The position numbers were made by a program, and so were the translations under genes. A model generated the notes under the pieces. The model was given only the letters and a program-made list of their open reading frames with translations, did no database searches and was not told where the DNA came from. Positions 15,001-57,485 of a stretch of DNA of 63,988 nt are shown here, piece after piece (within the stretch, counting starts at the first letter, position 1; each line of letters begins with the position of its first letter). The stretch is from assembly GCA_051294375.1 (NCBI GenBank), contig CM119268.1, positions 18,680,615-18,744,602 of the forward strand, written 5' to 3'. The stretch comes from Paraspadella gotoi. Lineage: Eukaryota > Animalia > Chaetognatha.

Positions 15001-17138
15001 TAGGCATAAAAATAATTAAAACATATTGTTTTTTTCTTTTTTTCTAATAAAAATTCCAGAAATAGATCGCGTATCTCTCAACAATAACAAGACGCCGCGA
15101 GACGTACGTGATAAATAATACCGTGCGAAAACCGAGGCGATAAAAATCGGCATAAACGATTACGATCTCGTACGCCAAAATCGCCATCTTTGAGTTTACG
15201 TTTAAAAGTGTGCCACAACTCCGCTTACATAAAAAAATTAGACAAACGAGAATAATTCGAAAACGGTTTCATTTTTTTACGTCAAAATCTGAACAAAAAA
15301 TTTCGAGTTAAGGTGGGGCTGCACTTACGAAAAGATTCGATAAATAAATAAATATAATTTAAAGATATTTTTTAAAACCCTACTTTCCAGTTACGATTTG
15401 AATATAAATAAATTTTACGTTGACCTAGTTGCAGATAAGAGGTTTAATAATATTATTTTAAATGATTCAATTGCTATACGTTAACTCAACACCTCATCCT
15501 AAACCACCCACCATCACTGTTCCACCCGACCAACCACTCCCCCCCCGAANNNNNNNNNNNNNNNNNNNNNNNNNCCACACCCCTTCCTACCTGACTCTCC
15601 AATCTGGAATTCTCTCGTCCAAGGAGGAAGACGCCGCCGTCGCCTCCGTCGCCGCCGTCGCGGGAGGCTTCTCCGACCCTTTAGGCTTGAGGTGTGCCAT
15701 GTCCAAGAGGCCAGCGGAGGCGAGGGGGCGTTCTCGTTCCACCGGCGCTCGACTTCCGGCGTCATTGGCGCCGGCGTTGACGCCAAGCAGCGCCAAGCGT
15801 CGAACCTCGGAAGTGGAACCGCGAAGAACAAGAGAGACAAGGACGTCGACGTAGACAACGCCCACCTATGGGACAAAGGGAGATGAGAATTGTCTTTTAT
15901 TGGACAAAGACGTGCAAAGAATAGACAAAACCAAGACAAAAACAAGGCAAAGACAAGACGGACAAAACGGACCTCCCATGGCCATTGGGCGACGCTCTTA
16001 TGCGCCAAGTGATCCAGACGCGAGAAGCGACTCTTCAACATCCGGAGACCGGAAGCAGATTCGTCGTCGTCGTCGTCATTCTTGTTGTCGTCCTCTTCCG
16101 TTTTAACGTCAACGCGGCGTGGGCGTGGCGAGCCGCTGAAAGAAGGCGACGAGAGGGCGTCGGCGTCCGTCGCGTCGGCGCCGATGTCGGTAATTACGTC
16201 GGCGAGGACGGTGGAGGAGACGGCGGCCATGGCGCTTTCGGCTTTGTCGGCAAAGTCCGGGGCTTCGGTTGTTAAAAGACCTAATTCAGGATTCGTCTTT
16301 TCTTCTCTTCTCGCGACGCCGAGGCCTTCGCCTTCATCATCCATTTCTAATCTTCTTTCTTTCTCACCTCCATTCTCCTCTCCTCCTCTTTCTTTTCTTC
16401 CTTCTTCCTCTCTTTTTTCCTTTCCTCCCTCAATTCCTCTTTCCTCCTTCTCTCTTCGATTAATGACGATCTTCACGTTTCCCGCCACAGAACGCCGACT
16501 CGCCGAAGCCGCCGTCGACGCCGTAGCGCCGCGAGATTCTAACAACGGGACGGCGCCGGTTGACGGCGCGGCGTCGGCGGCGCTGTCGGCGGTGTTTTCG
16601 TGGTCGTTGATGACAGAGACGTTAACGATCTCCTCCGAGGTGAAGGGACGGGTGAAGCCGCCCCCGATCTTTGAAGGGAAAGAGGCCGCCGCCGTGGATG
16701 TCGCTGCTGCCGAAACCGCAGCAGCAGCCGCAGCCGCAGTCGCCATCTCTGACAACGACGAAGAAGATGAAGCGTCACCCACTGCAGTTTTTAGGTCGAT
16801 GACGTAATTTTCGGTAGCAACACCGAACCCTGCTACATCTTGGGCTACATCTGGGGCTGCATCGGCTGCTGCATCTGCGGCGTAGTTCGTCTTCGATGAC
16901 ATCCTTTTCGGTGATGTTGGAAGAGGAGAGACATCGGCGCCACGAGAGGCCAAACGCGTCTTTAGGCCGGATCTGTCATCACGTAAGTAAATGTTAAAGA
17001 ATTTGATAAAAATAGTATGATTACACACTAAATAACGCTAAATTATTTAGCTACTTAATTCATAAACTCTCTAAAAAATTAAAAACGACAACCTTCTGAC
17101 ATTGACGATCCTCACATCCCCGACGTAACTCTCCGTCT

Positions 17139-17170
<32 letters not shown>

Positions 17171-17930
17171 TCGACAGGCAAAACTTCGAAAACGTTTTCG
17201 TCGGAAATCGAAGAGCGGGCGGTGAAGCGGGCAGAGGACGGAGCCGAAATTCGGGCGGTGGATCGGGCAGAAGATCGGGCAGAGTCACGGTCGGTGTCGG
17301 CAGAAGAAACGCGACTCGTTCGGGGGGAATTGACTTCGAGGAAATAATGATCAAGCGATTCTTGCACAGCGGGATCATCGGCGGCGACGGCGCTGGCGGT
17401 CGCGGAGGCGGCAGCGTCATCGTCTATTTCATCGTCGTCGGCGGCGTCACTTTTCTCTTCTGTCGAGAAAAAAAGGATTTGATCACTTATCACTTGATGT
17501 TATGGCGGGATATTCACACCGTCTAACATCAACTCACCAACTCCATTAAGCAAATCAGAGTGGGTACGCTACAGTTTACATTTAAAATATCAAATTATAA
17601 CAGTACGATTAATTATCCGACTCTCTTTTCCGAGAGTGCCCCATTTTTTTGTTTATTCAAGAATTTAATGAAATTGATACATCTAATATATTGTTAAATT
17701 TATAAACCAATCCTTAGACATAATCCCTCACCTTTACGTAATCCTGAACCGTAACTGTAAATAATAATCTTTTATGGCAACAAGCGGGTTGCCTGTTAAA
17801 TTATAACTTTTTACTCAAATTGGGGCGTTCTGGGAAAATAAGGCTTATGAGAAAATCCTCCACAATTAAAATCCTTGTTTACGTGTCCCACTTAATTCCC
17901 TTACCATCCGTTTTCAATGTCGTCGCGTCT

Positions 17931-17961
<31 letters not shown>

Positions 17962-20900
17962 TCTCTTCCTCTTCGTTGACGACGTCCAAACTCGATTTCG
18001 TCAAAAACGACGTCGATTGTCTACTCAAATCTTCCAGCGGCGCGCGGCGGTCTTCCGCAGCCGCCGCCGCCGCCGCCGCCCCGACGACTGGCGGATTACC
18101 CAGGACTCCGTTAACCGGAGTCGACGACGCAGCCGTCGAGGCGCACTTGGTGGGCGATTTCGAAAACGCGGCGTTCTTTTCGCTCTTGGGCGCCGGAATA
18201 GAAAAGGGCGTGGCCGGAGTCACGGGGCCGATGTCCGCCGAGCGATCTACGGACCTTTTAACGCCGCTACCTCCGCCGCCTCCGCTGCCAACGTCCTCTA
18301 CCGCCAGCTCTCTATCGACGGCATCCAAGATGCGCATTGAGGAGCCCTCTTCATCGGCGGCGTTGGCGGCGCCGAAACGGTCCGTCCGCGTCGGAGACCC
18401 TTTCGCTCGGTCTGCCTCCCAACGACCGACGGCGTCGAATTCGGGGCGTCGACGAGCGTCTCGACGGGCGCCGGCGCCTGGTTTGGTTTTTAAGAGATTA
18501 AGATTAACAATAGCAAACAATAAATAACAAGCAATAATAAGGAAAAACAATAACAAATGACTAAAGTTAGGCGAAAGGATAGCTTGTATAGGTTGAATGC
18601 AAATCATTTTTTTAACAACAGAAGTGTTAACTAATGTATTACTCATAAATAGTATAAATTGCCACTGTTTCTCATGTATTTTATTTGAAAATTGACACCA
18701 TTCTAACCTGAAATCCCTGTCTAATAGTGTCTATATATAATATATATGATTTTTTTTTAAACGTCACCTGATCCGTTTAAAGCGTTGGATGACGAAAGAA
18801 GCGCCAATGAGCTCGTCGTTAATCTAGTCGTCGTTGTCGTCGTCGTCGGTGGCGTCCGTCGCTTTTCGTCGACGAGGCGTTCGAAAGTCTTCAACGAGTC
18901 GAGAAGTCGAGATGCGGACGGGGGTGGGCGTGCCGCGTCATACTCGTCCAGCGTCACGCCTTCGGTAGAGGAGGGATTTAGTAATACATTTTTGCAATGA
19001 AGTTAATTTTCAAATCTTTGGGATATATGCTTTCAATAAAAATTAAAAACATATAAAAATGAATTAGTGAAAAGTTTTAGTAACTTAATATAATATATCA
19101 TTATACTACTACACAATATCATATTCAATTAACTTTAAAATACAAAGACGAACCTTCGTCATCATCGTCGTCGCTCATGGCGAAGGTAGATTCGCTTCCG
19201 GTGGCTTCGACGTCCGTCGACCGTACCGACGCCGCCGATCCCGACCCGGCGTCACTGGCGCCATCGAACGACGCCGCGACCGAATCTTCGCTGCCCCTAA
19301 AGGCTCGCGAGGAGGCGCCGCTGACGTTCGACGACCCAAGGCTGGAGCCGCCATCGTCGTCCTCGACGTCGTCGTCAGCGTCGTCGGCGAGGCGCCCGAG
19401 ACGAGCGCGAGTAGAACGCCGTGGTGGCTTGGTGGCGGTGGCGGTAGCGGTGGCGATGGCGGTGGGGGCGGTTGGAGGTGGAAATAGGGTGGATGGGTCG
19501 CGTCGACGCTGGTTAGAAAAAAGGGCCAAAGAGGGCGCATGAGACTGGGTGATATGATTGTCAAACAAAAAAACATCAATCCTTCCAATTTGTACGACGA
19601 ATTTCCCTGTCGGATTCTATCGAAATGATAATATTCTATGTTTTTTAATCAATATTTAACTCGCTGGTTCCATTGTTGACTCTTTTCCATCGCCAATCAA
19701 AGAAATAATGCATTACTTCAATTCGCTCCTTCAACAACTCTTTACTACAGTCGGACTAATCCTTTCTCAAGCCAGTTCCTTGTCTCTCCAACCTTTCCTT
19801 CTTCGTCCGGTCTGCTGTCGGGTATCCCCAAGGCTCCGCAGGCCATCTTGTGCAACATGCGCAACACGACGATCTCTGACCGCGCGGCTTCGCCAAGAAT
19901 CTCCATGGCGACGATAGTGTTGACCCAAGTATCATCGAAGAGACCCTGACGGCAGAAGGCCGTCGCCATGAGGGCTTCCTGCATGAGGACGGAGAATTAG
20001 GAAAGAAGAAATGTCTTCATTTGAGTTTCAGCCTTAGTTTTTAGAGAGAAATATCCAGGAATGAATTTTGGAAATAATGTTTACTTAAAAGAATGAAATT
20101 ATGAAATGAAAAGAAGATTACTGGATATATAAATCTCTCAGTTCTTGGTTGGCATAGAAATATGTTCTGGATATTATTGTATAACCCCACACCTACCCAC
20201 CTCCACCCACCTGTAAATTCTCCCCCGCCGTCGCCGCCGCCCGCCAAACGTCCACCGCGTGCCACAACGCCGGCGATAGTCGATGCGCCTCTCGACTTCG
20301 CTCCTCCTCGTCGCCGATTTCGTTGAGGCGGCGTTGACGCCGGTGAGTCGCCGCCGCGAAGGAGACGGTGATAACGCCGGGCTGGAGAAAGGGCGCCGAG
20401 GAAGGAGCGGCGTCCCTTTTAGCGACGGCGCTGTCCGGAAAGAGCGGCGTCGGACCCTCGACGACCGGTTCCGGGGGATCTTCGACCTTTGTGATGGAAG
20501 AAAAATTAAGTGACTGGACTGACCATCAAATCATTTGGCCCACGAAACATTTAAAGCAAGTTAAAACAAACAAACAAACTAAAAACAAAAACAAAGTGAG
20601 CAACTGCTTCAGAAACGACGATGACGACGACGCCAACCAAAAACAAACAAACAACAACAACAACAACTCTCTCTGTCTCTCTCTTCCTCACTTTGCCCGG
20701 TGTCAACAACGAGGCGACGATTTTCTGTCCGACGCCACAAACGAAATGCACGGCCAAGAGGGCGTTGGGGTAGCGACTGTAGGCGACCCTCCAATCGGCG
20801 AACCCTTCCAAATAAGGGAAGAGGCGTCGCTTGTTGTCGACGAAGGCGTCGAGGTCGCCCGAGAGTTGGTGGAAGTAGAGCCGCTTGAAGATGAGTCGCG

Positions 20901-21143
20901 CCATGCGCAGGAGTTTGAGCTCCAGTTTTTAGGTAAGGCTGATGAGGGGGAGAAGAGAAGGGGAGGAGGGGAAGGGGAAGAGGGGAGAGAAGAGAGGGAG
21001 GAGGGGAAGGGGAAGAGAGGGAGAGAAGAGAGGGGAGGAGGGGAAGAGGGAGAGGAAAATGAGGGAGGAAATTCTTGAATTCGAAAGACTATGTGGATTG
21101 AACTGTGGAGAGAGAAGAGAGAAAGAGAGAGAGAGAGAGAGAG

Positions 21144-21189
<46 letters not shown>

Positions 21190-21236
21190 AAGAAAGAAAG
21201 AAAAAGAAAGAAAGAAAGAAAAGAAGAAAGAAAGAA

Positions 21237-21272
<36 letters not shown>

Positions 21273-24200
21273 GAGAAAGAGAGAAAGAAAGAGAGACAGA
21301 GGAACATAAATTATCATTAAAATTGAAATAAAACGCTCGTGTTTCAGAACAAATAAAACAATATGCCCGTATTTAAATTTTATCTTGTTTCGTCTTCCCT
21401 CTCACTCGAATTTGAAAGAAATAAGTAAACAAGTTGGAGCAAACAATGTCGAATCTGCCTACGATAATAAAGAGGTAATCAGCTCATCAGATGATAAATC
21501 ATGATAATTCTTTCAATTTGTGATCCTAAATGATCAAATCAGAACTGTTCTTAAGGTACAAACAACTATTTTTTTAACTATAATCATTTTTTCAACTTGC
21601 AACATTTTTTCAATTTGCATCATTTTTTCAACCGGCATAATTTTTTTAACTTGCATCATTTTTTAAACTCGCATCAATTTTTAAACTTGCATCATTTTTT
21701 AAACTTGCATCATTTTCTCAACTCTCATCAGTTTTTTAACTTGCATCATTTTTTACAACTCGCATCATTTTTTCAACTCGCATCAATTTTTTAACTCGCA
21801 TCATTTTTTAAATTGGCATAATTTTTTCAACTGGCATCATTTTTTTAATTTGCATAATTTTTGTAACTTGCATCATTGTTTTAACTTACATCATTTTTTA
21901 AACTTGCATAATTTTTTCAATTTGCATATTTTTTGGACCGACGGACCAACACAGTAAACTATAGAGTCGGGATCTGCTGAGGAGGAGATCCGACTAAATA
22001 AAAAGATCGTAATTTTTTTTTCTTTATTTAACAGTCAAGTGTGGAGGTATATTCACACAGCCTTACGTCCAGTCTCATTGGCTCAAAGGGGGAACGCGCC
22101 ATCCCAGGCTTTACGTTCAATCCACAGTCCTAACGCCTACCCTCTTCGTTGGCAAAGCGAGACCGTCCTAGGGTAACCGCGCCAGTGACAGGAGGCGTCA
22201 ATAAGGGTCGGAAACCTTCAAAGCCAACAGTGAGATGTCCCATCTCAGTAGGCATCCCGGATGTTGCCATACATTATTTTTTTTACTTTTTTTTTATTAA
22301 GCAATGCTTAATGCTTAATGAGAGCAATCGAGATTCGTCGATTCCATTTCCGCGGCGTTTGCCCGATCCTCCGGTCCGTTTTCCATTCTCGAAGGGTTGA
22401 AAGTCCTTTGATGTTAGAATTCCGGTTCTATTCTTTACCGAATTTTAATTGGCTAGAAACCCTTTACCCTTTCAAAGCAGTAATTAGTGGTGTTAAGCTT
22501 GATATGCTTGTCAAGCAAGGTGCTTCAACCTTATTCGAACCTCGGAAAAAATTTATTTATCATTATTTCTTCTTTTCACAGATGAATTTGCGTCTTTTTG
22601 ACGGGATGATCTGCGCTACTTTAATTCCGATTCTTCTTCTGCTGAACATAAGCTTCGTCGCCAGCGACTGCCTTCTCAGCTCTTGGTTCGACAAAAATGC
22701 GCTCAACGTACAAAACTTCACAGTTTTTCACGCTCACTGGGCAGGCACGGACGTTCAGTCACCCAAAAAGGGATGCACAACTCTCACGCGAAACATAATG
22801 TTTCACGCTACAGTCAAATGGAAAAATAGGAAATATCTCCTCAGGGACTTTTTTCAACGAGATTCCAATAAATCTACTTCCGAAATCAATTTTTACAATC
22901 TCGGAATCGAAAGACTGGAGAACGGATTTCTCTATGACTTTCCCTTCCTCAAACAAGTTGGATTTACACAAAATTCCATCAGTTTTATCGGCGTCGATGC
23001 TTTTAAAGATTCAGCCTTGGAAGTGATTGGTTTAGATCACAATAATGTCACGGAAATCACAACGCAATTCACAAATCTCACAACCCTTCGTCATTTGCGG
23101 ATGAGATGTAACGATTTGAAACGAGTTTCCTCAAACGCTTTCCAAGGAACAAATCGTTTATCGCGGTTGTACTTGACCTGTAACTGGATAATTACGACGT
23201 CGTTTCTTCAGTCTTTGTCAAGAGTCAAAAAGTTTACTATTGAGTTCGGCGGAGATGCCTCTACGTCACGAGTATCCTTTCCGAACTTCACAAGACTGAG
23301 GGACATTCAGATTTATTTCGTTAGAAGAACAAATTTGTCATTTTTACACGGACGTCACGACACAATAAAATCTCTGAGAGTAACGGGAATGAAGGCTTTA
23401 ACTGAAAATTTTTTCTCAAATATGACAATAATTAAATTTATTGATATAAGGCGAGGAACATTGGTGAGTTTAACTAAAAATCTTCTCAGGAATTTATCAT
23501 ACCTAAGCCATCTTACTCTGAAAGAAATGGGCATAACACATATAGAAAAGGGATCGTTCATTGGGACGAAGTCGTTAAGATCGTTGCGGTTAAACCAAAA
23601 CGCCATCGGTCAGATAAATAAAACAACCTTTGAACATCTTAAATATCTGAAAAGCTTAGATTTAAGTGAAAATGTTATTCAAACAATACATCCGAATGCC
23701 TTCTCTGTACTTGAAAGCATTAAATTTATTAATTTAGGCTTTAATCTAATCAAACATTTAAACGAATTACTTTTCACTAAATTACCATTGCTACAAAATT
23801 TAATTTTAGAAGGAAACAGATTAAAAACTTTATCCATACCCGCAGATAATTCTATTACCTTCCTTAACTTGGACAATAACTCTTTCTCAGAAATCAATGT
23901 GGCTCTTATGAGTAACCTTACCAATCTTCTTTACTTTTCTATTTTGCAAAACCCATTGACTAGAATTCCTAAGTACTCTTTCAAAAAGAGTTTCTTAAAA
24001 GATATCAATTTCGGTTGCTGCTCCCGAGAGTTTGTCGATAAGTCTCAAAGTGAGAAGGAAAGATATTGTCACAATGTTTCAATGAAAATAGACAAAAATG
24101 CCCTCAGGCTAAATGATTATTTCCGATCGGGTCGTAAGTTGACCCGTTTGTCCATACTTGGTTGTGCAACTCCTTTAGAAGACACAATAGAGAATCTGAA

Positions 24201-27200
24201 CTCTGTAGACAGCATGCTTGAAATCATAACCTCGCAGTTTCAAGCTCGGTGGAATGATTGGAAAAGCTCCTTGGGGATTTTGCGACTAAACAGTTATGGG
24301 AATGAAGCCGTGTTTGACCTCTCGGAAAACGACATCCGCATAGTTAAATTTAGACAGTTTTCTTCTTTGACCGCTAAAGTTTTAGATCTTTCAAACAATC
24401 ATATCAGATACATTGCTCCGAATGCTTTCACTGACAGCAGTATAGCGCATATCAAGTTAAATGGAAATAATTTAGTTACGATATATTTGGACTTCAACAA
24501 AATTGCACCCGACATATTTCAACACATTGACGCATTTAACAATAATTTAACATTTTTTTATGTAAACTCACTGCGAAATAATGTGAAAGCATTCATCTCC
24601 ATAGATCTAAGCAAAAATCAAATTAAAAGATTTAGGGATGTTGGGATATTTGGATTTTCTTATGTCAAGACTTTAAATCTCAGTCAGAATAATATAAGTC
24701 AATTTTCATCGAATTCATCTATATTAAATATATCAACCGTAGAATCGATTGACGTTTCCCACAACCACTTGAAAGAACTACCACCCGAGATAACCTTTTT
24801 AAAAGATACTAAAATCATTGCTAAGGGTAACAATTGGGATTGTAACTCATGTTTCCAGGCTTATCTCTTTTCGCACGTAATTTTGTATCAGTCAATGGAG
24901 GACTTTAATTGCTTTTCTACTCAGACACTTCATGAATACGTTCAAGTTTGCAACATTGAAGAATATTATATACCGTATGGGTTTTTGGTCATAGTCTGCA
25001 TTATGATTTTAATAAAATTAATTCATTCTTTGAATATCTTAAGATTAAAAAAGAAATACAAAGTTTGTGAACTCGTTCCACTTGGCACTTTTAGGAAAAG
25101 AAAAGAATTTGTTAAGAAGTCATCGCGACATCAAATGATAAGTCATAGTAATATTATAAATCTTCGCAATTTCTCTACCGAATTCAGCTTTAAGTATTTT
25201 ATCAAAGGGTATTCTTTCGTTGAACGAGCGTTATGCAACCTTCAGCAAGGACTTGAAATTTCCGATACAGGTCAAATAGTCTATGACAAAGACCAATTAT
25301 GCAAGCAGCTTCTTAGAGGTTTGGCATTCCTGCATTCGTTGTCGCCGCCAATTTTTCATTTGGGTTTGTCCTTAGACTCTATATTCCTCTGTGGATCTTT
25401 TGAAAACCTTACTCTAAAAATTGGTAATTTTGGAGAATGTCTAACAGCTGATGATATAAAAAAATTAGGATGCGTCAAAATAAGTCGCATTCGTTGTTAC
25501 GATCTTGAATGCGCTTCCGAGATTATCAAAACGATTCAACAAAATCTGACGGTTGAATTCAAAGTATTGTGTCGTGCTCTCAGCAAAGGACTAGACGCAA
25601 CGAAAGCCCTTGAAACACCAGCTTTTCAGCCTGTGAGCGATAAATTCGTGTTGCTCAACAAGTTAAACAATCTCCTCAAAGATATGAGACTCAAAAGAAA
25701 CAATTCTGTAAACGAAATTGAAGAAAAATCTACTTTGATCATTGGCGGACAAGGATCGTGGAACAAATTATTTGATTCTAAAATGTTATATACATTCGGA
25801 ACTCGTACTAATGGCTACAGAATCACGAAATGCATTGACTTGATTAGGTTCATCAGAAACATCATCGAGCACGCAGAGGAAGAAAAGACAACCATGAAAA
25901 ATACTTTAGGAGTGGAGGCCCCAAAGCCTGAAGAGTTGTACAGATACTTTTCAGAAAAATTTCCCTACTTTTTTCTCTTTGCTATTTACATATATGACAA
26001 ACTCGAAAATACATTGAGCGTAGAGAAAAATATTTATTTTGAAGAGTTTTCAAACCTGCTCAATGAAATGACCGAAAATTTGTCCGAAGAAGTGAGCCTG
26101 CAACCACTGCTGCTAAAAAACACCGTGCAAGTTACCTTCTTGAACTTTGACCCCCGCACTCGGTATTTGGCAACCGTTGAGAAATCCTTGCAATTCTCGA
26201 TGAATGAACCGAAAACCAAAGTTGACGGAAGCCTCGTGGCAGAGATGATTGTCAAGGATGTTGAGTGTCTCTGGCCAGGAACACCCAAGGAGAGTTTATC
26301 CGCGTTGACCGAGCAAGGGTTCGACCTCTTTGAAACGAGCAATCCCTCGATTCCAGTTTTGGAAGGGTCGGAGGTTCGCGTCTCCAAGATGCAGTGCCTC
26401 GTCCGCTCCGATCAATTCCCGGACGATAAAGGATTCCATTTTCTCTTCGACTTTAAAAGGAAGTTCAACGTCAAAGCTCTCAAGGCAAATTACATTCAGT
26501 GCCTTGCGGCCCAAGTTGGAATTAAGGTCCCGACCGATCAGCTGAAGATCTCTCTGAATGGACGTCTTGTCAAGGACAATGACAAAATACTTTTATTGGA
26601 ATTTTCGAAATATCCCTTCCTCGTTGAAGTACTTTGTGCTCACTGAAGATGACCAACAATATCTAATACGTAATCCTGTATTAACCTCGATTCTGGGTTT
26701 TAAACTGTCTCGGTGATTTGACTCTTTTTAATTTTGACACAATGCTTCACGAATTTTGTATTACTTTTCCTAAGTGGAACCCCCTAATGGAACCCTTTCC
26801 CTATCATTTGGTGTTTAATTTATAATCGTCGTTAAGACAAGAGTTTTTGACTTTGTATGATTTCCTTTTTTTCCATATATGTTTTCGAGAAAACTTTGAT
26901 TTGTTTTTAAGATTTCATTTACATTTGGTATTTCGGTTTCACTTATTTTATTATTTTTTTTATTTTGGTATCCCTTTTGGTTTCTACTAAGATACAGCGC
27001 CATTTGTATACGTATATAAAGGGTTTTAAAAAAATTATATTTCTAATTTTAAACTTCATAATTTTGTCAACTTTTTTTCTAAAAGTTTCTCCATTTTAGG
27101 TCAGCCAACCTGCATCATGCTATCCGTTCTTAGCCAATACAGGGTCGCCTCGGCCAAGTAGAAGAGAGTGGGGATGTGATCAGCGCTGACCTCAGCCGAG

Positions 27201-28748
27201 TCCAACGACTCGACCAAGACATTGAGGCAATCTTCTTGCACTGGAGATAGAAAATTATATTGTTTATTTTTTTTTATTTCTTAGTAGTTGATTTTGTTTT
27301 CTCTTTTCATCTTTTTTTTCCTTTAGTCCATTCTTTTTTTATTTCTCTTTCTTTCTTTATTTCTTTCTTTTCATATTTTTTTTCTTTCTTTCCTTCTTTC
27401 CTTTCTTTCTTTATTTATTTCTTTCTTTCTTTCTTTCTCTCTTTCTCTCCACCACCTTTTCCCTTGCACTGGGCCAGTCTCGATAACTCCGTCCACGCCT
27501 TCGGGATATCCACACTTCCGCGCGTAGTGGAGAGACCCGCTCGTCTCTTTGCTCGTCGCAGCATTTTGTAGGCGACGTCCTCCATCTCTCTAAGTTCGCT
27601 GTCGTGGCAGCCTGAGAATTGTAATCAAATCAGTCAACCAGTAAATAAAATCAATCATTGTAACCAATCACCATTAAATCTTGCAGCCTGGGAATGTAAT
27701 CAAATCAGTCAATCAGTAAATAAAATCAATCAATGTAACCAATCACCATTAAATCTTGCAGCCTGAGATGTAATCAAATCAGTCAAGCAGTAAATAAAAT
27801 CAATCAATGTAACCAATCACCATTACATCTTTCAGCCTGAGAATGTAATCAAATCAGTCAAGCAGTAAATAAATCAATCAATGTAACCAATCACCATTAA
27901 ATCTTGCAGCCTGAGAATGTAATCAATCAGTCAAGCAGTAAATAAAATCATCAATGTAACCAATCACCATTAAATCTTGCAGCCTGAGAATGTAATCAAA
28001 TCAGTCAAGCAGTAATAAAAAATCAATCAATGTAACCAATCCATTTAATCTTGCAGCCTGAGAATGTAATCAATTCAGTCAACCATTTCAAATCAATGTA
28101 ACCAATCACCATTAAATCTTTCAGCCTGAGAATGTAATCAATCAGTCAAGAGTAAATAAAATCAATCAATGTAACCAATCACCATTAAATCTTGCAGCCT
28201 GAGAATGTAATCAAATCAGTCAAGCAGTAAATAAAATCAATCAATGTAACCAATCACCATTAAATCTTGCAGCCTGAGAATGTAATCAAATCAGTCAAGC
28301 AGTAAATAAAATCAATCAATGTAACCAATCACCATTAAATCTTGCAGCCTGAGAATGTAATCAAATCAGTCAAGCAGAAATAAAATCAATCAATGTAACC
28401 AATCACCATTAAATCTTGCAGCCTGAGAATGTAATCAAATCAGTCAAGCAGTAAATAAAATCAATCAATGTAACCAATCACCATTAAATTATCTTGCAGT
28501 CTGGACTCAGAGAATGCTAATCAAATCAGCGTCAAGCAGAATAAAATCAATCAATGTAACCAATCACCATTAAATCTTGCTATAAAGTCGTCGGTGACGT
28601 CCAGTGGATTCTTGTTGGCCTGAACGATCCCGGGCATCGAGCGATGCTGCTCGTACTGTTGACGCAAAAGACGCTCTTGCAATAGGAGGCGTTGGCTGTT
28701 GGAGATGATGCCGAACTTGTGGACGACGGGGAGTCTGGCGACGGGCAT
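6953..28748 (-). CDS. TMEM232: TMEM232 orthologue (multi-exon, with a large low-complexity insertion; 3' exons duplicated in the assembly)
   Basis: Exons 28748-28568 (MPVARLPVVHKFGIIS...VTDDFIARFN), 27611-27456 (AYKMLRRAKRRAGL...VDIPKAWTELSRLAQCKGK), 27240-27110 (VQEDCLNVLVESLD...HIPTLFYLAE) and 20938-20692 (ELKLLRMARLIFKRL...YSRYPN). Later blocks: LWHAVDVW near 20260, TWVNTIVAMEILGEAA near 19900, WPWE/VGVVYVDVL near 15970/15860, FVARRLASLYLP near 8240 and DLNRVVEDQW near 7220. These match human TMEM232 blocks as recalled ([74 protein letters not shown]) in the same order. Confidence 0.9.
8720..12970. repeat. Indel-riddled tandem copy of about 4400-8665 (probable raw long-read assembly artefact)
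   Basis: Colinear with 4400-8665, with dense, mostly single-base insertions in exons and introns alike. Confidence 0.85.
12020..12280. repeat. (AAAT)n microsatellite
   Basis: Run of AAAT/AATAA units; the counterpart at 7380-8010 is broken by N gaps. Confidence 0.9.
14440..14620. repeat. Dispersed repeat with about 22-bp subunits; inverted copy at about 42060-42232
   Basis: ttactatcgaaagcggctcgat at about 14571 is the reverse complement of atcgagccgctttcgatagtaa at about 42084. Both are flanked by ggttatcat..gcatcaatatt-type units. Confidence 0.7.
21570..22005 (+). mobile_element. Non-autonomous Helentron/HINE-like element carrying a 21-bp tandem array
   Basis: About 16 copies of ttttttaacttgcatcatttt-like units (21570-21932), then ggaccgacggaccaac, ctatagagtcg and a stem-loop agtcgggatct...agatccgact (21965-21995) ending in an A-run. 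Confidence 0.5.
22039..22271 (+). mobile_element. tRNA-derived SINE-like element related to the 31605/62619 family
   Basis: 5' hairpin gtgtgga...ttcacac, A-box-like TGGCTCAAAGG and B-box-like GTTCAATCC. Shares gccagtgacaggaggcg and the terminal gttgccata with the 31605 element. Confidence 0.55.
22582..26646 (+). CDS. Single-pass LRR receptor with cytoplasmic pseudokinase, KEN (RNase L/IRE1-type) ribonuclease and ubiquitin-like tail, 1354 aa, intronless CDS
   Basis: Uninterrupted ORF. ATG 22582 follows a splice acceptor and starts a signal peptide. Many LxxLxLxxNxI repeats; LRR-CT GNNWDCNSC at about 24826; TM at about 24964-25040; kinase-like HSNIINL, LLRGLAFLHS, IFHLGLSLDSIFL and LKIGNFG; KEN motif YRITKCIDLIRFIRNIIEH...YFSEKFP; ubiquitin-like VKALK...VPTDQLKISLNGRLVKD. 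Confidence 0.9.
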   Translation: MNLRLFDGMICATLIPILLLLNISFVASDCLLSSWFDKNALNVQNFTVFHAHWAGTDVQSPKKGCTTLTRNIMFHATVKWKNRKYLLRDFFQRDSNKSTSEINFYNLGIERLENGFLYDFPFLKQVGFTQNSISFIGVDAFKDSALEVIGLDHNNVTEITTQFTNLTTLRHLRMRCNDLKRVSSNAFQGTNRLSRLYLTCNWIITTSFLQSLSRVKKFTIEFGGDASTSRVSFPNFTRLRDIQIYFVRRTNLSFLHGRHDTIKSLRVTGMKALTENFFSNMTIIKFIDIRRGTLVSLTKNLLRNLSYLSHLTLKEMGITHIEKGSFIGTKSLRSLRLNQNAIGQINKTTFEHLKYLKSLDLSENVIQTIHPNAFSVLESIKFINLGFNLIKHLNELLFTKLPLLQNLILEGNRLKTLSIPADNSITFLNLDNNSFSEINVALMSNLTNLLYFSILQNPLTRIPKYSFKKSFLKDINFGCCSREFVDKSQSEKERYCHNVSMKIDKNALRLNDYFRSGRKLTRLSILGCATPLEDTIENLNSVDSMLEIITSQFQARWNDWKSSLGILRLNSYGNEAVFDLSENDIRIVKFRQFSSLTAKVLDLSNNHIRYIAPNAFTDSSIAHIKLNGNNLVTIYLDFNKIAPDIFQHIDAFNNNLTFFYVNSLRNNVKAFISIDLSKNQIKRFRDVGIFGFSYVKTLNLSQNNISQFSSNSSILNISTVESIDVSHNHLKELPPEITFLKDTKIIAKGNNWDCNSCFQAYLFSHVILYQSMEDFNCFSTQTLHEYVQVCNIEEYYIPYGFLVIVCIMILIKLIHSLNILRLKKKYKVCELVPLGTFRKRKEFVKKSSRHQMISHSNIINLRNFSTEFSFKYFIKGYSFVERALCNLQQGLEISDTGQIVYDKDQLCKQLLRGLAFLHSLSPPIFHLGLSLDSIFLCGSFENLTLKIGNFGECLTADDIKKLGCVKISRIRCYDLECASEIIKTIQQNLTVEFKVLCRALSKGLDATKALETPAFQPVSDKFVLLNKLNNLLKDMRLKRNNSVNEIEEKSTLIIGGQGSWNKLFDSKMLYTFGTRTNGYRITKCIDLIRFIRNIIEHAEEEKTTMKNTLGVEAPKPEELYRYFSEKFPYFFLFAIYIYDKLENTLSVEKNIYFEEFSNLLNEMTENLSEEVSLQPLLLKNTVQVTFLNFDPRTRYLATVEKSLQFSMNEPKTKVDGSLVAEMIVKDVECLWPGTPKESLSALTEQGFDLFETSNPSIPVLEGSEVRVSKMQCLVRSDQFPDDKGFHFLFDFKRKFNVKALKANYIQCLAAQVGIKVPTDQLKISLNGRLVKDNDKILLLEFSKYPFLVEVLCAH
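27607..28580. repeat. 13-copy tandem repeat of a 75-bp unit forming TMEM232 coding intron 1
   Basis: Unit gcagcctgagaatgtaatcaaatcagtcaagcagtaaataaaatcaatcaatgtaaccaatcaccattaaatctt. Unit starts at about 27607, 27683, 27758, 27832, 27906, 27979, 28053, 28121, 28194, 28269, 28344, 28418 and 28496. Confidence 0.95.
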
Positions 28749-30375: not shown

Positions 30376-33300
30376 AGTTGAAAAAAAGAGTGAAGAAACA
30401 AAGAGTGAAAGAGAGCGAGAGTAGATAGTTTTCTAATCATACTTTTAGTACTTTTACTGACTAGATGTTATTTAAAAAATTTAAAATATATCTTTTAATA
30501 AAAAAAATGTATACAAGTAATTGGAGAAAAAAATTTTTTTAGTGATTTCCTTCATCTTCCTCATAAACCCCGCGAATTACTTTCTCCTTAAAATCTTTCA
30601 ATCTTTTCAAAAACTCTTCTCTTATCTCTCTCCCCACCGAGAACAACACCCTGGCCCATTCGGTATCTTCGCCCTCAAAAACGTCTGCCGGAACGACGAG
30701 GCATCCGGTAGCCGAGAGAAGATCACGGCAGAGGTCGCGTTCGCCCGTCGAGTAAGGGTTGCCCGAAGGCGGAAGCATTTTAGTGAGGTTGACCCATAGG
30801 AACAACCCGGCGTTTGTGTCCCTTACCTTAAGAAAACGCGAGGGTGACAGGTGTCGAGGAGGGTTCATTTTATTGGTTATTCGTTGTTCGTTGCTGTTAC
30901 TTACAGACAACGAGCGGCCTTGTGAATATAACCATTAGAAAAAGATAAAAAATCCTAAGAACTCGCTATTACAAAAAATAATGAATGAAAAATAATAGCA
31001 AATGATAAAACCTACTTCGGCTCCCAACTTCAAAAGTTCGCTCGTCATGTGATCCTTGGCTTCTTTCAATCGCCCGAAATTCGTAGGGAAGAAGACCTGG
31101 TCGAGCCATTCCGCGTCGGAGATGAGAGAGTTGAGAAGAAGTTGCACTGGCGACGGCGTCATGTAAAAGACGCTGACCGATGCCATCGCTTTCGCAACGA
31201 CTTTGCTCCAACTTGAGAGAATAAAAATAGTAGTTGAGACTGGAATTATCAACAATTTAATCCAGTGTCAGCCAGAATCTAAATTCCGACGCTCCAGCCG
31301 TGAGTCGCGGGTTCTTTATTTCTATCTCACCATAAAACAGCCACATCGTCTTACCAAAACGTTAAAAATTTCACAAGGCGTCACATTTCATTTCACCAAT
31401 ACACCTGTAAACGACGCCGCAGCGGAATCCGGAAACGCAAATGTCTTTGCTGAAAGACCAGATGAGGTGGACACGGGAAGGATCGGGCAAGGCGCGGCTC
31501 AAGGAGGCCACGCTGTGGAAAGAGTCAGGGTCGGAGATAACTGACATAGCGTAAACCTGTAGAAGAGAAAAAAAGAGTACTTTAAGTTTAAAAGACATAC
31601 TATGGCAACGGGAGGATAGCCTGTGATACCCGGGGCGCGGGGTATCTCACCAACTGGCGTAGGGGCTGCGGACCCTCAGTGACCGCCTCCTGTCACTGGC
31701 ATGTTTATACCGGCACCGTCACATTTAAGCCAGAACCGGGATACCCAGGGATTGAACCCGGGACGCACGGATGGAATGAGATGATTTAGCCTGCTCAGCC
31801 ATTGAGACGAGGCTGAGGACGGACAGCAGTGAGGCAGCATTAAGTCTTGCTGCCACAATACGTTCTCATACAGCTTCATTTCTCTTAAACCTAAATCCTT
31901 TACCAAATCCCTAATCAAATTCCTAACTTACTCCCCAACCATAATCTCTACCCTAACCCCTATTCCTCACCCTTAACCTAATCTTTAAACTTAAAAATTA
32001 CTTAATTCTGACATTAAATTGAAAGGGAGCACTTTTGAAAAATAGGGCCTCGATTACCTCGTCAAATACGACGTGAAGATGTCGCTGATAAGCAAACTCC
32101 AAAACAGTGAGAATGGCCCGGCGGGAAATACAGGTGCCAATGGGGTTTCCTGGGTTAGTGAGAAAAATTCCTCGCACCTTTTTACCTTGTGACTCTGCCG
32201 AATCAAAGGCAAACGCCATCCGAGTGGTAATTTCGGAAATTAATTGATCCTAAATCGTAGTCAAGGTTAATAAACATTTCAAAAAATAAAAGAAAAAGAA
32301 ATTGAAAACGATTAATTAATTTCCTCTTTTAAAACTATTTTAACTACAAGAAGCTTTTATTTTCTCTTGAATCTTTAGATCTTTTCCTCTTAAACTTCAA
32401 ACCGCTCACTTCTTTTCCCTTTCTTTCTCCAACGGACGCCATGAGACTATTGGCCAAATGGACAGGCACAACTTTGACTCTGGCCATTTGGCCCAACCCA
32501 TTTTTGATTCCCTCATAGAAGGGAGAAGGAACGAGGAAGAAGTCGCCATCTTGTGCCAAAACGTGACCGAGACAAGTGATGCCCGACATGGAACTTGGGA
32601 AAAAATTCGAAAATATCTCATTATATATCTTTGGGTTCGGAGATGAAGCGTTAGCCCAGTGCGTTATTTCGGCGCTGATGGAAGGAACAGTCGTATTCAA
32701 CAATATCACAACAATATCATACATATATCATACGTGAGGCTGATTAATAACGACAGTTTCAAAGACTTTTTTAATGACTGGACTTTATCATCCTGCAAAT
32801 TCTACATTTTTACTAAAATGAGTTAATTTGACCGTAACCATAACAACGACAAACTCCCGACTGACCCGAGGAGGACAAAGAGGTGTTCCGGATCGAGCGG
32901 CTCGTCGGCCTTGAGCCGTTGGGAGAGGAAAGACGCCAAATTCCGGCGGAAAAGCGGCAGCCCCGACGGAGGGAAGTAGTGAAAGCCGGATTTGCTGATC
33001 GCGAGCCGAGACATTCTGGAAAGAAGTTTTTTCAAATATGACCGATAAACATATACCGAAAGTTTAATGACAGACAATTTTATGACCTCAATTTCCACTA
33101 ACCTCCCTCAGCTCCTAAAATATTCGGAAATATGCTAAAAGTGGATAATATTAAAATATAATTGTTAGAATCCAAAAATATATCGTAATATGGCAGAAAT
33201 GTTTTTTCTTTAACAAAAGTTATTACTTTGATGATATTTTAGCTATATATTTTTGATTATTTCAAAAAAATGTTTTTATTATAATAGTAAAACAAGTAAT

Positions 33301-36300
33301 TTTGTAACTTAAATAGTATATATGTTACATAGGTATATAGTAAAGAGACAGTAAAAATTGTTAATTTGTTACGAATTAGTGGCAGAACCATTCAATGTAA
33401 GCAGTCCCTGAGCTTCGGATCAGGCTTTAAAATCGTGTTGCAGGCGGGTTAAACGACCCGTTCCCACTTAATTGCTAGGCGACCACCGGTCTAGAACGCC
33501 GGACCTTTGGGTTGGGAGGCAAATGACTTGACTCCTGCACCTATGGCCGCTGATGAACGGTTGGTGGATTTTAGTCCACCATAATAGCGATCATTCTAGT
33601 TTGAAATAATTAACCTCTCGTTAAGCACATCATCCATTAATTTATTTTGCGCAGATCCCAAGTTGATCATCCCCGTGGGATTTTTCTTTGCGCAGAAAGG
33701 ATTACGTTTGCACAACGAAGACTTTTCTATGATGTAGCTGTGGAAGTTTGGGTCGGCAGCATCCACAGCTCGATTCGAAATGATGTCGTGGTCGTCACTT
33801 TCTTGGCCTGTCCCATTTTCCATTTTCCCTTTCGATTTTAATCGACCGAAGAAAAATGTAAATAAAATACAAGGAGGTCCAGCTCTTATGGGACTAATTT
33901 CAAAGGCTTACTGTTTAAGATAGAAGAAAACAAAAGATTATATTTGGAAACTCGGTTAAATTTTCTTTTGATCGATATCAAAAACGGCTTTTGCATGATA
34001 TGTTAAAATTCTTTGCGCCGCTTTCTTACAAAATTTTGGGAAATTTTGGCAAAAATGAAGATGAAGGATAGTGACTTCTGACTTTAGGCTGCGCAGTTTT
34101 TCTTCCTGCAATCCCCCGAATTAATGAAAATGTAGGACAGAGAAGCGAAAAGTGTCTCACACATCCCCTCTAGAATTATCGATTTTCTGATAGCAACAAT
34201 AGTAACAGAAATGAAAACATTCCCAACGGGCGCGGTCCAAAAAGCATGTCACGCCTTGTCTGAACACTTAGACAATGTCATGGTTGCCAAATGTGAATCT
34301 CTTTAATTGATTGTGCTTTTATTATAACTTTTTTAATTTTTTTATTTACCCGTCAAAACGATTTTTTTAAGTTAATCCCAAAAAAGCTGGACCTCCCTGT
34401 ATGTACCGAGCAAAAAGTTAATTGAAAAATAGAAAAAAAAAGAATATTTATGTAGGTATAATGCAAAGAAAAGTTGGTTGGCCAAAACTTGTTATCGCAA
34501 GATTTGAAAACCAGTTCCATTTGACGAACCGTCAGTTGTTCAAGGACATTAACTTACCTCTGTCAGTTACCCGACAAACGGGTTATTTTGTTTTTCTTTG
34601 GTAGGTTTGAAGGTTCAAAAACTAGAATCTAAAACCACAACGTCTGTATTGGCGTTCGCGGTGGCCAACGCGAGTAGTGGAGGACGAGGGGGAGACGGCT
34701 AAAGATTCGACATCTTGGTCTCAAGTTTCCCGATTCGCGACGAGAGTCGCGTCGACGAATAATATAATTTGAAGAAGATGTTTTTTGTTTTGCTTAACGT
34801 TGGAATTTGAATTTGTAGAATAATCAATTGCCTCGAAAATAAGATTTGACGTTGAACGTTTTTACGATACGTTTTTAATTAGTTTATAACTTTTTTATGA
34901 TTCCTTGTTTATTTATAAACAACTTGAACATGTTTTTAACTTCTCGTCTGTTTCAATGTAAATAAACATTTAAAAACGCGTTGAATTCACAATCGTCGTC
35001 TAAAAAAAGTCAGTTACATAGTGAAGGAATGAAAAGAAATTTGAATTGAACTGTTTTTAAATAAGTGAATTATCAAATTCAAGATTCCCAAAACCCATTT
35101 CAACTTTTCTCACACTTCACAGGAATGGACTCCCTCGATCCCAAAGCCCGGAGAGAAGAATCACCAAGCAGCAAACGTGAGAAGGATGAGGAAGATTCAG
35201 CGAGATAGTCGGGAAAGGGCGAGGAAGGCTACAGAGCCTTTGAAGGTAAGGCTTACAAGCTTACAAGCTGAACAAAGCATGAAGTAAAATTAAATGTCGA
35301 ATCATACATCTTTCGTACATACAAAGGCTCTGTGGAAGTCCCCGGCGTACGTGGACGCTCCATCCCGATTGGTCGAGCTCATGCAAGACGTAAATCCTAA
35401 ACAACCAATCAACTCCACTTATCTGAGAGCGCACTCTCGACAAGGAACGCGGGTTGGCAAGGAAAGAGAAATGTCTACCGAGACGATGGGTAAGTATTTT
35501 CATAGAAATGCGATTTTGAACAACAATACGTTAATGTCACAAAAAATGTTTTTCCGCAGACTTGGCAATCGAAGGCACGAAACTCGAAAAAACATTGGAA
35601 AAACATGAATCAAAACAAAAACAAGGGGAAGCCAATAAAGAAAACGAAAAAGGAAACAAACCGACACAAAACTCAGACCAAGAAAAAACTAATAAAAACA
35701 TCGTTGAGAAACAAAAAGAATCACAAGATGGCGTCAAAAAATCCGAGAGCGTCTACAACCTTCTCTCCGACAACGACTCTAACTCACATCATGAACCCGT
35801 TCTGTCTGAAGCGGTGGATTCGCAATCGCATCCGGGAGAGAAAGTCGTCGCCGTGACTCCCCGGATGAGGTTGACTTTAAAGGACTCTAGTCTAAAGCTC
35901 GACCTTAGACGCCTCGAAGAGGACGACGCCGCCAAGTTGACGAAAGGCTCCAAGCTGGCGTCCAAAGCCGTCAATTCCGGGCGCCGTCCGAGAACGCCCT
36001 CTATTCCGTCTCGCCCGCCCAACGCTCCGCGACCTCAATCGGCGCGGGCGGCGTCGTCGACGTCCTTAGCCGACGGCGTCGCGGCGCCTGCTGCGTCGGC
36101 GCGGGGAAGCTCTGCAGGGCGGCGTCCCTGCAGCGCCAGGCTGGATCGAGATCCCAAGGATTTTTTAATTCGCAGAGAAACGAATTTCGTGAGAGTCAAT
36201 TCTAAAGGGGCGAAGGAGACGACGATTCGGTAAGAGAATTTGGTCTCGCTCTCGCTCTCTCTCTCGCTCTCTCTCTCGCTCTCGCTATCTGTTTTTTGTT

Positions 36301-39717: not shown

Positions 39718-40240
39718 TCTCTCTCCTCTCTCTCCTCTCTCTCTCTCTCTCTCTTCTCGTCTCTCTCTCTCTCTCTCTCAATGGATCATTTTAAAGTCGA
39801 AGCATCGATTTCGTTGCAGCGAGGATTTTCATTGCCTAAATCTTGCCTCCTTCGCCTCTCGCCCTCTGGAGTCCACAAAGTAAACGACGCGCAATTTTTT
39901 TTCACGGTTGCCATGGAGAGGCTATCAGGGGGAATGTCTGTTTTTATTTAGTCCATCTTCTCCTTATATGACAATATATTTTAGTTTATTTTTACGAACC
40001 AACTCATATATAAGCTTAGTTTGGACAAGTACATTGTATTTTATATCATCTTATCATTTATCTTATCATTCAAATCAAGTAAAATTTTCCGACTATTCGC
40101 ACTCAATTCACGTGCGCGCGTCTCACCGGCGATTCGCACGCAATCGCGTGGTCTCCGCACGAGGTCACCGACTTCCCTGGATTTGAAGCGCGAATCATCG
40201 GGGGAAAGATTAAAACGGTTGGAGGTTAGAAAGAGTTGAG

Positions 40241-40257
40241 ACCGGAAGTGAAGATGG
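40241..40257 (+). promoter_or_regulatory. Possible core promoter motifs (ETS ACCGGAAGTG and YY1-like AAGATGG) in a CpG-rich patch
   Basis: ACCGGAAGTG is directly followed by AAGATGG, after a CG-rich stretch at 40100-40200. No downstream gene could be built with confidence. Confidence 0.3.

Positions 40258-48071: not shown

Positions 48072-57485
<9,414 letters not shown>

Follow-up and report, generated by a model that had tools for sequence, protein, structure and literature searches.

A Toll-like leucine-rich repeat receptor with a pseudokinase–KEN cytosolic module in Paraspadella gotoi: a predicted receptor ribonuclease

Introduction

To our knowledge, the established sensors of the kinase–KEN ribonucleases of animals fall into only two classes: the lumenal domain of IRE1 and the ankyrin repeats of RNase L. 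RNase L is activated by back-to-back dimerisation, in which composite sites are formed in trans (PMC7547215), and IRE1 is likewise active as a back-to-back dimer (PMC8104961). The HEPN active site is Rx4-6H, and KEN domains require its histidine and arginine as well as the polar residue that follows the arginine (PMC3710099); some HEPN domains are non-catalytic, and those described in the available text of the same paper are without the Rx4-6H motif. KEN domains fused to UBI or BRCT are also reported there (the KEN–ubiquitin fusion in Table 1), as are lineage-specific KEN expansions in Oikopleura and monocots, predicted to be defensive (section 9). Among Toll-like receptors (TLRs), two ectodomain layouts with single and double cysteine clusters (scc and mcc) have been defined (PMC10279657).

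Here we analyse a gene in a 63,988-nucleotide stretch of the chaetognath Paraspadella gotoi (contig CM119268.1 of assembly GCA_051294375.1; “the window”), originally predicted to join a Toll-like ectodomain to an RNase L/IRE1-type ribonuclease.

Results

Gene structure and genomic setting

The receptor is encoded by a single uninterrupted frame of 1354 codons (window 22582–26646, + strand), running from the ATG at 22582 to a stop that ends at 26646 and free of N-runs; the frame is open already from 22312. The prediction of one ORF is upheld by this continuity and by collinear full-length relatives (P0002, P0003, and P0064). The LRR and KEN halves are not misjoined: P0002 is collinear over 1211 residues (29%, E 2e-150), taking in ectodomain, transmembrane helix (TM), and KEN domain, and P0064 aligns over 1394 columns (E 1.6e-50). 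Because three other full-length proteins keep the same domain order, we conclude that the gene is not misassembled.

Run X1 has no entry as RNA, and contains spliced RNA of the same organism. Its contigs cover about half of the receptor gene, eight of them matching it with 0–1 differences each; as they are unstranded, host pre-mRNA or DNA may be the source of these contigs. No X1 contig bridges 24857–24976, from the last LRRs to the TM, and parts left uncovered in this run prove nothing. Paralogue-like contigs are also present in X1, while the window itself holds no second family member.

A feature absent from the original prediction is that the gene lies nested, in antisense, within an intron of TMEM232 (Table 1), the exons upstream and downstream of which match positions 71–113 and 130–198 of the TMEM232 Pfam model, respectively. 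An Rfam scan of the host intron gave no matches, and there are no terminal repeats flanking the receptor gene. Indel errors of the assembly occur nearby, a TMEM232 exon being 2 bases short in comparison with the X1 contig.

Table 1. Features of the receptor gene and its host intron (window coordinates).
Feature	Position	Strand	Basis or remark
Receptor gene, single-exon ORF	22582..26646	+	signal peptide–LRR–TM–pseudokinase–KEN–ubiquitin-like tail
Predicted signal peptide, residues 1 to ~27	22582..22662	+	hydropathy peak 2.39; cleavage site estimated
LRR ectodomain	22663..24963	+	LRR_8 E 1.4e-41, 9 stretches; ~770 residues
Putative LRR-CT cap, four-cysteine motif	24826-24951	+	C754, C757, C777, C790 (motif scan)
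Single transmembrane helix	24970..25041	+	hydropathy peak 2.49; basic residues next
Degenerate pseudokinase directly after TM	25042..25641	+	Pkinase E 0.0015; kinase fold match Z 12-14
KEN (HEPN-type) ribonuclease domain	25642..26031	+	PF06479 E 7.6e-15
Predicted catalytic R1092, N1093	25855-25860	+	invariant
Predicted catalytic H1097	25870-25872	+	invariant; Y1079 accompanies catalytic set
Probable first ubiquitin-like (beta-grasp) unit, residues 1179-1268	26116..26385	+	weak: AlphaFold strand/helix order
C-terminal ubiquitin-like unit, residues 1269-1352	26386..26637	+	family profile vs PDB
TMEM232 exon preceding host intron	27110..27240	-	PF15877 E 1.3e-11
TMEM232 GT-AG intron enclosing receptor gene	20939..27109	-	X1 contig joins 27110 directly to 20938
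TMEM232 exon following host intron	20720..20938	-	PF15877 E 3.5e-9

Ectodomain and membrane helix

Exactly two segments exceed a hydropathy of 1.6, residues ~2–35 and ~792–822, which agrees with the predicted signal peptide and single TM. An alternative ATG at residue 9 would still leave a signal peptide. P0003 carries an equivalent N-terminal hydrophobic segment; P0002 and P0064 as predicted are without a signal peptide, probably owing to late start calls. The TM is found at the same position in P0002, P0003, P0064, and the fragment P0005.

Between these two segments, the Pfam LRR_8 match confirms the LRR ectodomain, which includes a mid-domain cysteine insert at residues 478–528, common to P0002 and P0003. 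The four-cysteine LRR-CT motif is present in 4/4 of the full-length proteins, and the Pfam LRRCT model gave no score. Cysteine clusters in the ectodomain number one in P0001 and P0002, and two in P0003 and P0064. The ectodomain had also been called rich in sequons, which holds for the counts (18 before the TM versus 5 after it); judged per asparagine (18/78 versus 5/30), the excess mostly reflects the asparagine-rich LRRs.

The best ectodomain matches in the PDB are generic LRR proteins and not specifically TLRs; ALS comes first, and LGR5, LGR4, LRRC15, LRRTM, TLR13, and TLR3 are among the others. The TLR13 and TLR3 matches were rejected as a clue to the ligand, being generic LRR similarity. 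A TIR domain found no match even with E values of up to 1 allowed, and kinase fold, KEN domain, and tail account for the cytosolic part. “Toll-like” stands as a description of the ectodomain layout and not of membership in the TLR family.

Pseudokinase, KEN domain, and ubiquitin-like tail

The remnant of a kinase fold foreseen after the TM is recovered both by Pfam (Pkinase, residues 843–954, under the curated cut-off) and by structural matches. It is clearly degenerate: the glycine-rich loop, HRD, and APE are absent, NFG replaces DFG, and the activation segment is shortened. GxGxxG, HRD, and APE occur in 0/9 of the family kinase segments, and all three occur in the IRE1-like control P0050. 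WNK-like matches of the kinase N-terminal part were rejected as an indication of origin, since they come down to one short motif, and a structural match to the TBK1 kinase-ULD was disregarded (rmsd 19).

The KEN domain lies where the original prediction had placed it, by profile as well as by structure. PF06479 matches residues 1033–1149 (nucleotides 25678–26028), scoring 55.6 bits where the cut-off is 23.3 (E 7.6e-15). The AlphaFold model has a pLDDT of 90.7, and in a structure search over 48,161 chains IRE1 (Z 17.9) and RNase L (Z 16.5) come out above all other kinases, which reach 13.7 or less. A separate structural comparison gave Z 18.9 for IRE1 (rmsd 3.3, 301 aligned) and Z 17.0 for RNase L. 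The R-N-xxx-H catalytic motif, formed by R1092, N1093, and H1097, is invariant in 23/23 aligned members; together with W1060, these are the only invariant columns among 181 well-covered ones, for which the median conservation is 42%. H1097 aligns with the histidine that is asparagine in the RNase-inactive Ire1 mutant 3sdj. A homodimer prediction for residues 817–1176, in which the alignment was not used, scored 0.00 and gives no answer either way.

For the predicted ubiquitin-like tail, the last unit is borne out by a family profile, with 21/21 PDB matches being ubiquitin-like (best RAD23B UBL, E 0.003), and relative P0008 matches Pfam ubiquitin (E 3e-4); a Pfam search of the receptor's own tail gave no match. 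The upstream unit is probably ubiquitin-like as well, on weak support: hhalign of the two units gave a probability of 3.6% and a score of 16.6, whereas none of 40 shuffles scored above 10.9. A single-sequence fold of the tail had a pLDDT of 31, too low for a structure search.

A divergent receptor family

The receptor belongs to a family, a point absent from the original prediction. The same architecture is found in P0002, P0003, and P0064, relatives from environmental sequence data, at pairwise identities of 22–30%. Fragment P0005 retains the LRR-CT motif, TM, pseudokinase, and KEN domain, and in P0056 the same cassette is placed behind an LRR-ROC-COR (ROCO) module. The best conserved part is the KEN domain (32–38% versus 21–28% in the ectodomain); in P0005 and P0006, degenerate extra repeats precede an intact KEN domain. 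Domain order and its conservation in the family, the intact catalytic motif, and the loss of kinase motifs are direct observations.

In a tree of KEN domains, at least 23 divergent rows form one group apart from the IRE1-like rows (85/90 support), a separation that holds against IRE1-like rows only, as the outgroups were IRE1-like and unnamed sequences with no RNase L row. Rows with fewer than ~95 profile positions and 7 near-duplicates were dropped, and P0021 forms a long branch.

Of the 29 related clusters, none comes from NCBI or UniRef (0/29). Scans of metagenome and viral contigs and a phage tblastn, which find close relatives only, returned no relatives; a viral source of some homologues is unsupported by these scans. 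Two word-based searches for proteins, one using the cytosolic region and one using alignment A1 against longer proteins, returned nothing, a result without weight because the A1 search missed P0002 and P0003, both of them in the alignment and within its range. Matches in the ESM Atlas all score below 0.9 and serve as leads only, the nearest being LRR-kinases (0.86); PF06479 is in none of the ESM Atlas clusters among the matches listed.

Discussion

Proposed mechanism

On balance, we favour the reading that this is a receptor ribonuclease, in which dimerisation of the Toll-like ectodomain by a ligand, most likely of microbial or viral origin, switches on the pseudokinase–KEN module; ligand dimerisation, activity, immune role, and location are the parts that we infer. 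A ligand would pair two ectodomains on the cell surface or inside an endosome, the paired ectodomains would press the pseudokinases back to back, and a shared RNase site would be assembled, cutting RNA without a TIR adaptor, a kinase cascade, or a 2-5A messenger. That OAS and 2-5A are dispensable, as originally proposed, has as its sole basis the lack of ankyrin repeats, for which there was no Pfam match in the receptor. Since no long linker separates the pseudokinase from the membrane, coupling would be tight. With its glycine-rich loop lost, the pseudokinase is likely a pure scaffold with no ATP bound; RNase L needs pseudokinase-bound ATP (PMC7547215), and the switch described there therefore cannot apply unchanged. 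The putative ubiquitin-like tail would likely govern turnover or partner binding.

The divergent rows, the presence of both cysteine-cluster types, the replacement of the sensor by a ROCO module, and the paralogue-like contigs are typical of immune receptor families. There is, in our estimate, about an even chance that a whole innate-immunity branch of one-component sensor-RNases exists in an animal lineage, in which the IRE1/RNase L-type cassette of pseudokinase, KEN domain, and ubiquitin-like tail has been placed on both classes of Toll-type ectodomain and on ROCO modules, coupling microbial ligands to direct destruction of RNA.

Alternative readings

The input to a receptor ribonuclease of the same mechanism could instead be a self-signal, for example contact between cells, allorecognition, or a ligand acting in development; selected mRNAs would then be degraded locally, or the contacting cell would die. 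Toll-type receptors serve development too, as the insect Tolls do, and the anatomy hence does not force an immune role; the ectodomain matches include the non-immune ALS, LGR4/5, LRRC15, and LRRTM, and how narrow or broad the specificity of IRE1-type KEN domains is can vary with the dimer interface (PMC8104961). We nevertheless regard this as unlikely, as fast divergence, many paralogues, and the sensor swap to ROCO fit defence better, and lineage-specific KEN expansions are predicted to be defensive (PMC3710099).

The receptor could also be an offshoot of IRE1 that has remained in the ER or the secretory pathway. Its LRRs would then sense stress in the lumen, misfolded glycoproteins, or proteins of foreign origin, and would trigger a RIDD-like decay of ER-bound mRNAs. 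The topology is that of IRE1, and by profile and fold scores the cytosolic module is slightly nearer to IRE1 than to RNase L. The gap in Z is, however, below 2, there is no IRE1 lumenal domain, active kinase, or C-terminal dilysine motif, and the putative LRR-CT cap adjoins the TM, a feature of cell-surface and endosomal receptors; we consider this reading quite improbable.

That the KEN domain does not cut, and instead binds RNA or partners in a scaffold signalling through pseudokinase and ubiquitin-like tail, strikes us as very unlikely. The kinase half is clearly dead, the extra repeats of P0005 and P0006 are degenerate, and non-catalytic HEPN domains exist, but those described in the available text of PMC3710099 are without Rx4-6H, whereas active-site R, N, and H account for three of only four invariant columns among 181 here. 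Finally, an assembly chimera or silent pseudogene, which nearby indel errors (2 bases in the TMEM232 exon) and the unbridged span 24857–24976 might suggest, can practically be dismissed in view of the 4 kb open, N-free frame, three independent relatives, all full-length and alike in domain order, and eight X1 contigs with 0–1 differences each.

If the receptor ribonuclease reading is true, the Toll-type ectodomain is a third sensor class gating the kinase–KEN module, and TLR-type recognition can drive an enzymatic effector without TIR signalling, which would bear on the invertebrate origins of an antiviral RNA decay like that of RNase L. Testing the central claim would be cheap, given a small cytosolic part with a confidently predicted fold and an obvious catalytic mutant. 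The pseudokinase–KEN module is also a possible natural template for ligand-gated RNases.

Comparison with known systems

In line with the novelty originally supposed, no described LRR+TM+KEN family was found in the literature searched. IRE1 is the best structural match and shares the type I order of signal peptide, sensor, single TM, kinase fold, and KEN domain. Unlike IRE1, with its lumenal domain, the receptor has LRRs throughout the ectodomain; its kinase is dead, truncated, and at the membrane, it carries a ubiquitin-like tail, and it falls on a separate branch of the KEN tree. IRE1 is a conserved gene, whereas the receptor is one of an expanded family.

With RNase L, the receptor shares a repeat-protein sensor, a pseudokinase, and a KEN domain, and the two proteins align closely around the catalytic motif and in the last KEN helix. 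RNase L is, however, soluble with 2-5A-binding ankyrin repeats, whereas the receptor is membrane-bound with extracytoplasmic LRRs; the pseudokinase of RNase L binds ATP (PMC7547215), whereas that of the receptor is without a glycine-rich loop.

The signal peptide, long LRR array, and one TM are those of TLRs, the four-cysteine motif would correspond to their LRR-CT cap, and both TLR layouts (PMC10279657) occur within the receptor family, scc in P0001/P0002 and mcc in P0003/P0064; the predicted output is enzymatic, and not through MyD88/NF-kB. Plant LRR receptor-like kinases share the order LRR–TM–kinase fold, but the receptor has animal-type LRR caps, a dead kinase, a KEN domain, and ubiquitin-like domains. 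The KEN proteins of PMC3710099 are, as described there, kinase-free or soluble, in contrast to a membrane-bound receptor with a kinase fold, and its available text lists no LRR-TM form of KEN, LRRs appearing with the DZIP3 HEPN family. The receptor is predicted to work like IRE1 and RNase L, yet it belongs to neither of these families, nor to the TLRs.

Domain composition of the receptor

P0001, the protein of the receptor gene, has only two segments by hydropathy, one at the N-terminus and one at residues about 797–820, the latter followed by basic residues. Pfam finds LRR_8 in nine stretches (E 1.4e-41), Ribonuc_2-5A/KEN (PF06479) at residues 1033–1149 (E 7.6e-15) and, sub-threshold, Pkinase at residues 843–954 (E 0.0015); open frame, hydropathy and Pfam together bear out the single ORF with LRR, TM and KEN of the original prediction. 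Of the predicted LRR-CT, only a cysteine motif is recognizable, with no Pfam LRRCT match. Likewise, the sequon richness claimed for the ectodomain is real (18 of 78 asparagines before the TM vs. 5 of 30 after it) but mostly a consequence of asparagine content. A family profile of the final 84 residues hits only ubiquitin-like chains in the PDB (21/21 matches; best E 0.003), as had been proposed for the tail, and the 90 residues ahead of them are probably a second, weakly supported unit of this kind.

For the cytosolic part, AlphaFold gives a model with pLDDT 90.7 and pTM 0.86 from a 28-row alignment. It superimposes on IRE1 with Z 18.9 (rmsd 3.3, 301 aligned) and on RNase L with Z 17.0 (rmsd 3.5, 285 aligned), and an unbiased structure search of 48,161 chains places IRE1 first, RNase L second and all plain kinases below. 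Profile and model thus agree on the KEN domain, and the kinase-fold matches, coupled with the sub-threshold Pkinase hit, uphold the predicted kinase remnant. The pseudokinase fold begins directly after the TM, its first strands missing.

Genomic setting and expression

Features of the locus
Feature	Position	Strand	Remarks
MED30-like exon	4891–5244	−	Pfam E 5e-4
Long Ala/Asp/Ser-rich low-complexity frames	15514–19650	−	Downstream of TMEM232 exons; no Pfam match
Intron of TMEM232	20939–27109	−	GT-AG, 6171 bases; receptor gene inside, antisense
18-base tandem array	21570–21925		Precedes the next repeat
Very high-copy expressed repeat	21950–22290		Just upstream of receptor gene; summed contig depth in thousands in sequencing run X1; no Rfam match
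Receptor gene	22582–26646	+	1354 codons, one open frame, gap-free sequence
Tandem array	27610–28560		Units about 73 bases; makes up a TMEM232 intron
Class I aminotransferase gene	30540–33910	−	Pfam
Enkurin-domain gene	36465–37782	+	Pfam E 3e-14
Duplicated stretch	39880–40910		
Aminotransferase first exons, second copy	48730–49240	−	Frameshifted; about 15 kb off
Duplicated stretch	55800–56320		

The TMEM232 exons either side of the receptor gene match consecutive parts of PF15877, and an X1 contig links 27110 directly to 20938, so that X1 contains spliced RNA of the source organism. Against this contig the TMEM232 exon is two bases short at 20911–20938 and thereby loses its frame; an assembly error is the probable cause. 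GC3 is 0.37–0.39 in the ectodomain and the kinase-KEN part, 0.57 in the tail and 0.60–0.79 in the TMEM232 exons; these values, the single exon and the location inside another gene's intron are what one would expect if the receptor gene had been inserted later. The low-complexity frames may be an extended TMEM232 C-terminus or a separate gene. The Pfam-supported neighbors (MED30-like, Enkurin and the aminotransferase, which we take to be ACC-synthase-like) are an animal-type gene set. The duplicated stretches suggest local duplication or haplotype mis-assembly.

Eight X1 contigs, with 0–1 differences each, cover about 55% of the receptor ORF, with hardly a break between 24977 (TM) and 26784, slightly beyond the stop. 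They are suggestive of a transcript and no proof, because they are unstranded, none spans 24857–24976, and one reads unspliced through an acceptor-like sequence ahead of the ATG. Additional X1 contigs appear at 80% likeness; their matches are confined to the KEN motif and the beginning of the final ubiquitin-like unit, consistent with two or three paralogues.

A family of receptors

Searching all 1.84 billion representatives with HMMER, using the cytosolic part as query, yielded 49 matches, the best two of which, P0002 (1393 aa) and P0003 (1457 aa), each have LRR, kinase-fold and KEN domains; a targeted search with the KEN of P0003 added P0064 (1368 aa). In all three the TM sits between the LRR-CT motif and the kinase fold. 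Pairwise identity of the four full-length proteins is only 22–30%, and P0002 is collinear with P0001 across 1211 residues (E 2e-150). P0001 and P0002 each have a single cysteine cluster; in P0003 and P0064 a second one breaks up the LRR array, as in the multiple-cysteine-cluster Tolls of invertebrates (PMC10279657). From these sequences, the receptor architecture is that of a family and no accident.

In the KEN-region tree (28 rows), 23 rows form one group (support 85/90), separate from two IRE1-like rows and a further two without names, with the LRR-TM members spread over four sub-branches. Adjoining the group on a long branch is P0021, a Logan protein possibly near the ancestral state; by eye its kinase is intact (HRD, DFG, APE), its KEN resembles that of the family, and its tail is short.

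Other relatives vary the cassette. In P0005 and P0006, an intact KEN is preceded by additional degenerate repeats; with P0012 and P0013 they make up a subfamily in which repeated blocks of pseudokinase C-lobe and degenerate KEN-like sequence without the catalytic motif precede one intact KEN. These blocks could be built-in dimer partners or inhibitors. P0056 (1599 aa, ENA, cluster of P0007) carries the pseudokinase-KEN-ubiquitin-like cassette C-terminal to LRR and ROC, downstream of a COR-like region split by two hydrophobic segments flanking a Thr-rich stretch, and begins with a possible ubiquitin-like unit before the LRR. It would be a ROCO protein with an RNase at its end, a fusion known from this one predicted protein; P0053, from the same cluster, is a 1087-aa form ending before the cassette.

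Representatives of the 29 clusters looked up come from ENA (23), JGI/IMG (3) and Logan assemblies (3); NCBI and UniRef contributed none, and all lack an informative name, which may be why the family was overlooked.

Proposed mechanism

TLR ectodomains dimerize on ligand, bringing their C-termini close together. The simplest reading, which we consider probable, is that a ligand would pair two receptor ectodomains and that this pairing would assemble an active RNase from the cytosolic parts, with a presumed role in immunity and a presumed location at the cell surface or in an endosome. IRE1 (PMC8104961) and RNase L (PMC7547215) are paired back to back when they cleave RNA, and the active sites of these dimers are composite (see also PMC8141879). 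That a self or developmental signal feeds this mechanism is unlikely, and an ER-resident IRE1-like sensor somewhat more so.

Of all domains in the full-length proteins, KEN has the highest conservation (32–38% vs. 21–28% for the ectodomain). Over 181 alignment columns, each covered by at least 18 rows, median conservation is 42%, and only four columns are invariant (W1060, R1092, N1093, and H1097, each in 23/23 rows); three of these are HEPN/KEN active-site residues according to PMC3710099. The KEN stretch of P0001 aligns to yeast Ire1 and to pig and human RNase L, H1097 being the position of His → Asn in 3sdj, an RNase-inactive Ire1 structure. The kinase, on the other hand, is dead: GxGxxG, HRD, and APE occur in 0/9 family kinase segments, and all are present in the IRE1-like control P0050. 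That the protein is a non-catalytic scaffold is improbable, and an artefact is the least credible explanation of all.

Comparison with known systems

A HEPN survey lists KEN fused to ankyrin, CCCH, UBI, and BRCT, with expansions in Oikopleura and monocots; the LRR-TM form is absent from its table and section 9 (PMC3710099). Searches of the open full-text literature gave no description of the LRR-TM-KEN architecture, in keeping with the predicted novelty. The receptor family is real and conserved, and apparently undescribed.

In its proposed mode of action the receptor would work like IRE1 and RNase L. It is a member of neither: unlike IRE1, it has no lumenal domain and its kinase is inactive, and unlike RNase L it lacks ankyrins and is membrane-bound. 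Nor is it a TLR, as it has no TIR. The family is a new sensor class attached to a known kind of enzyme.
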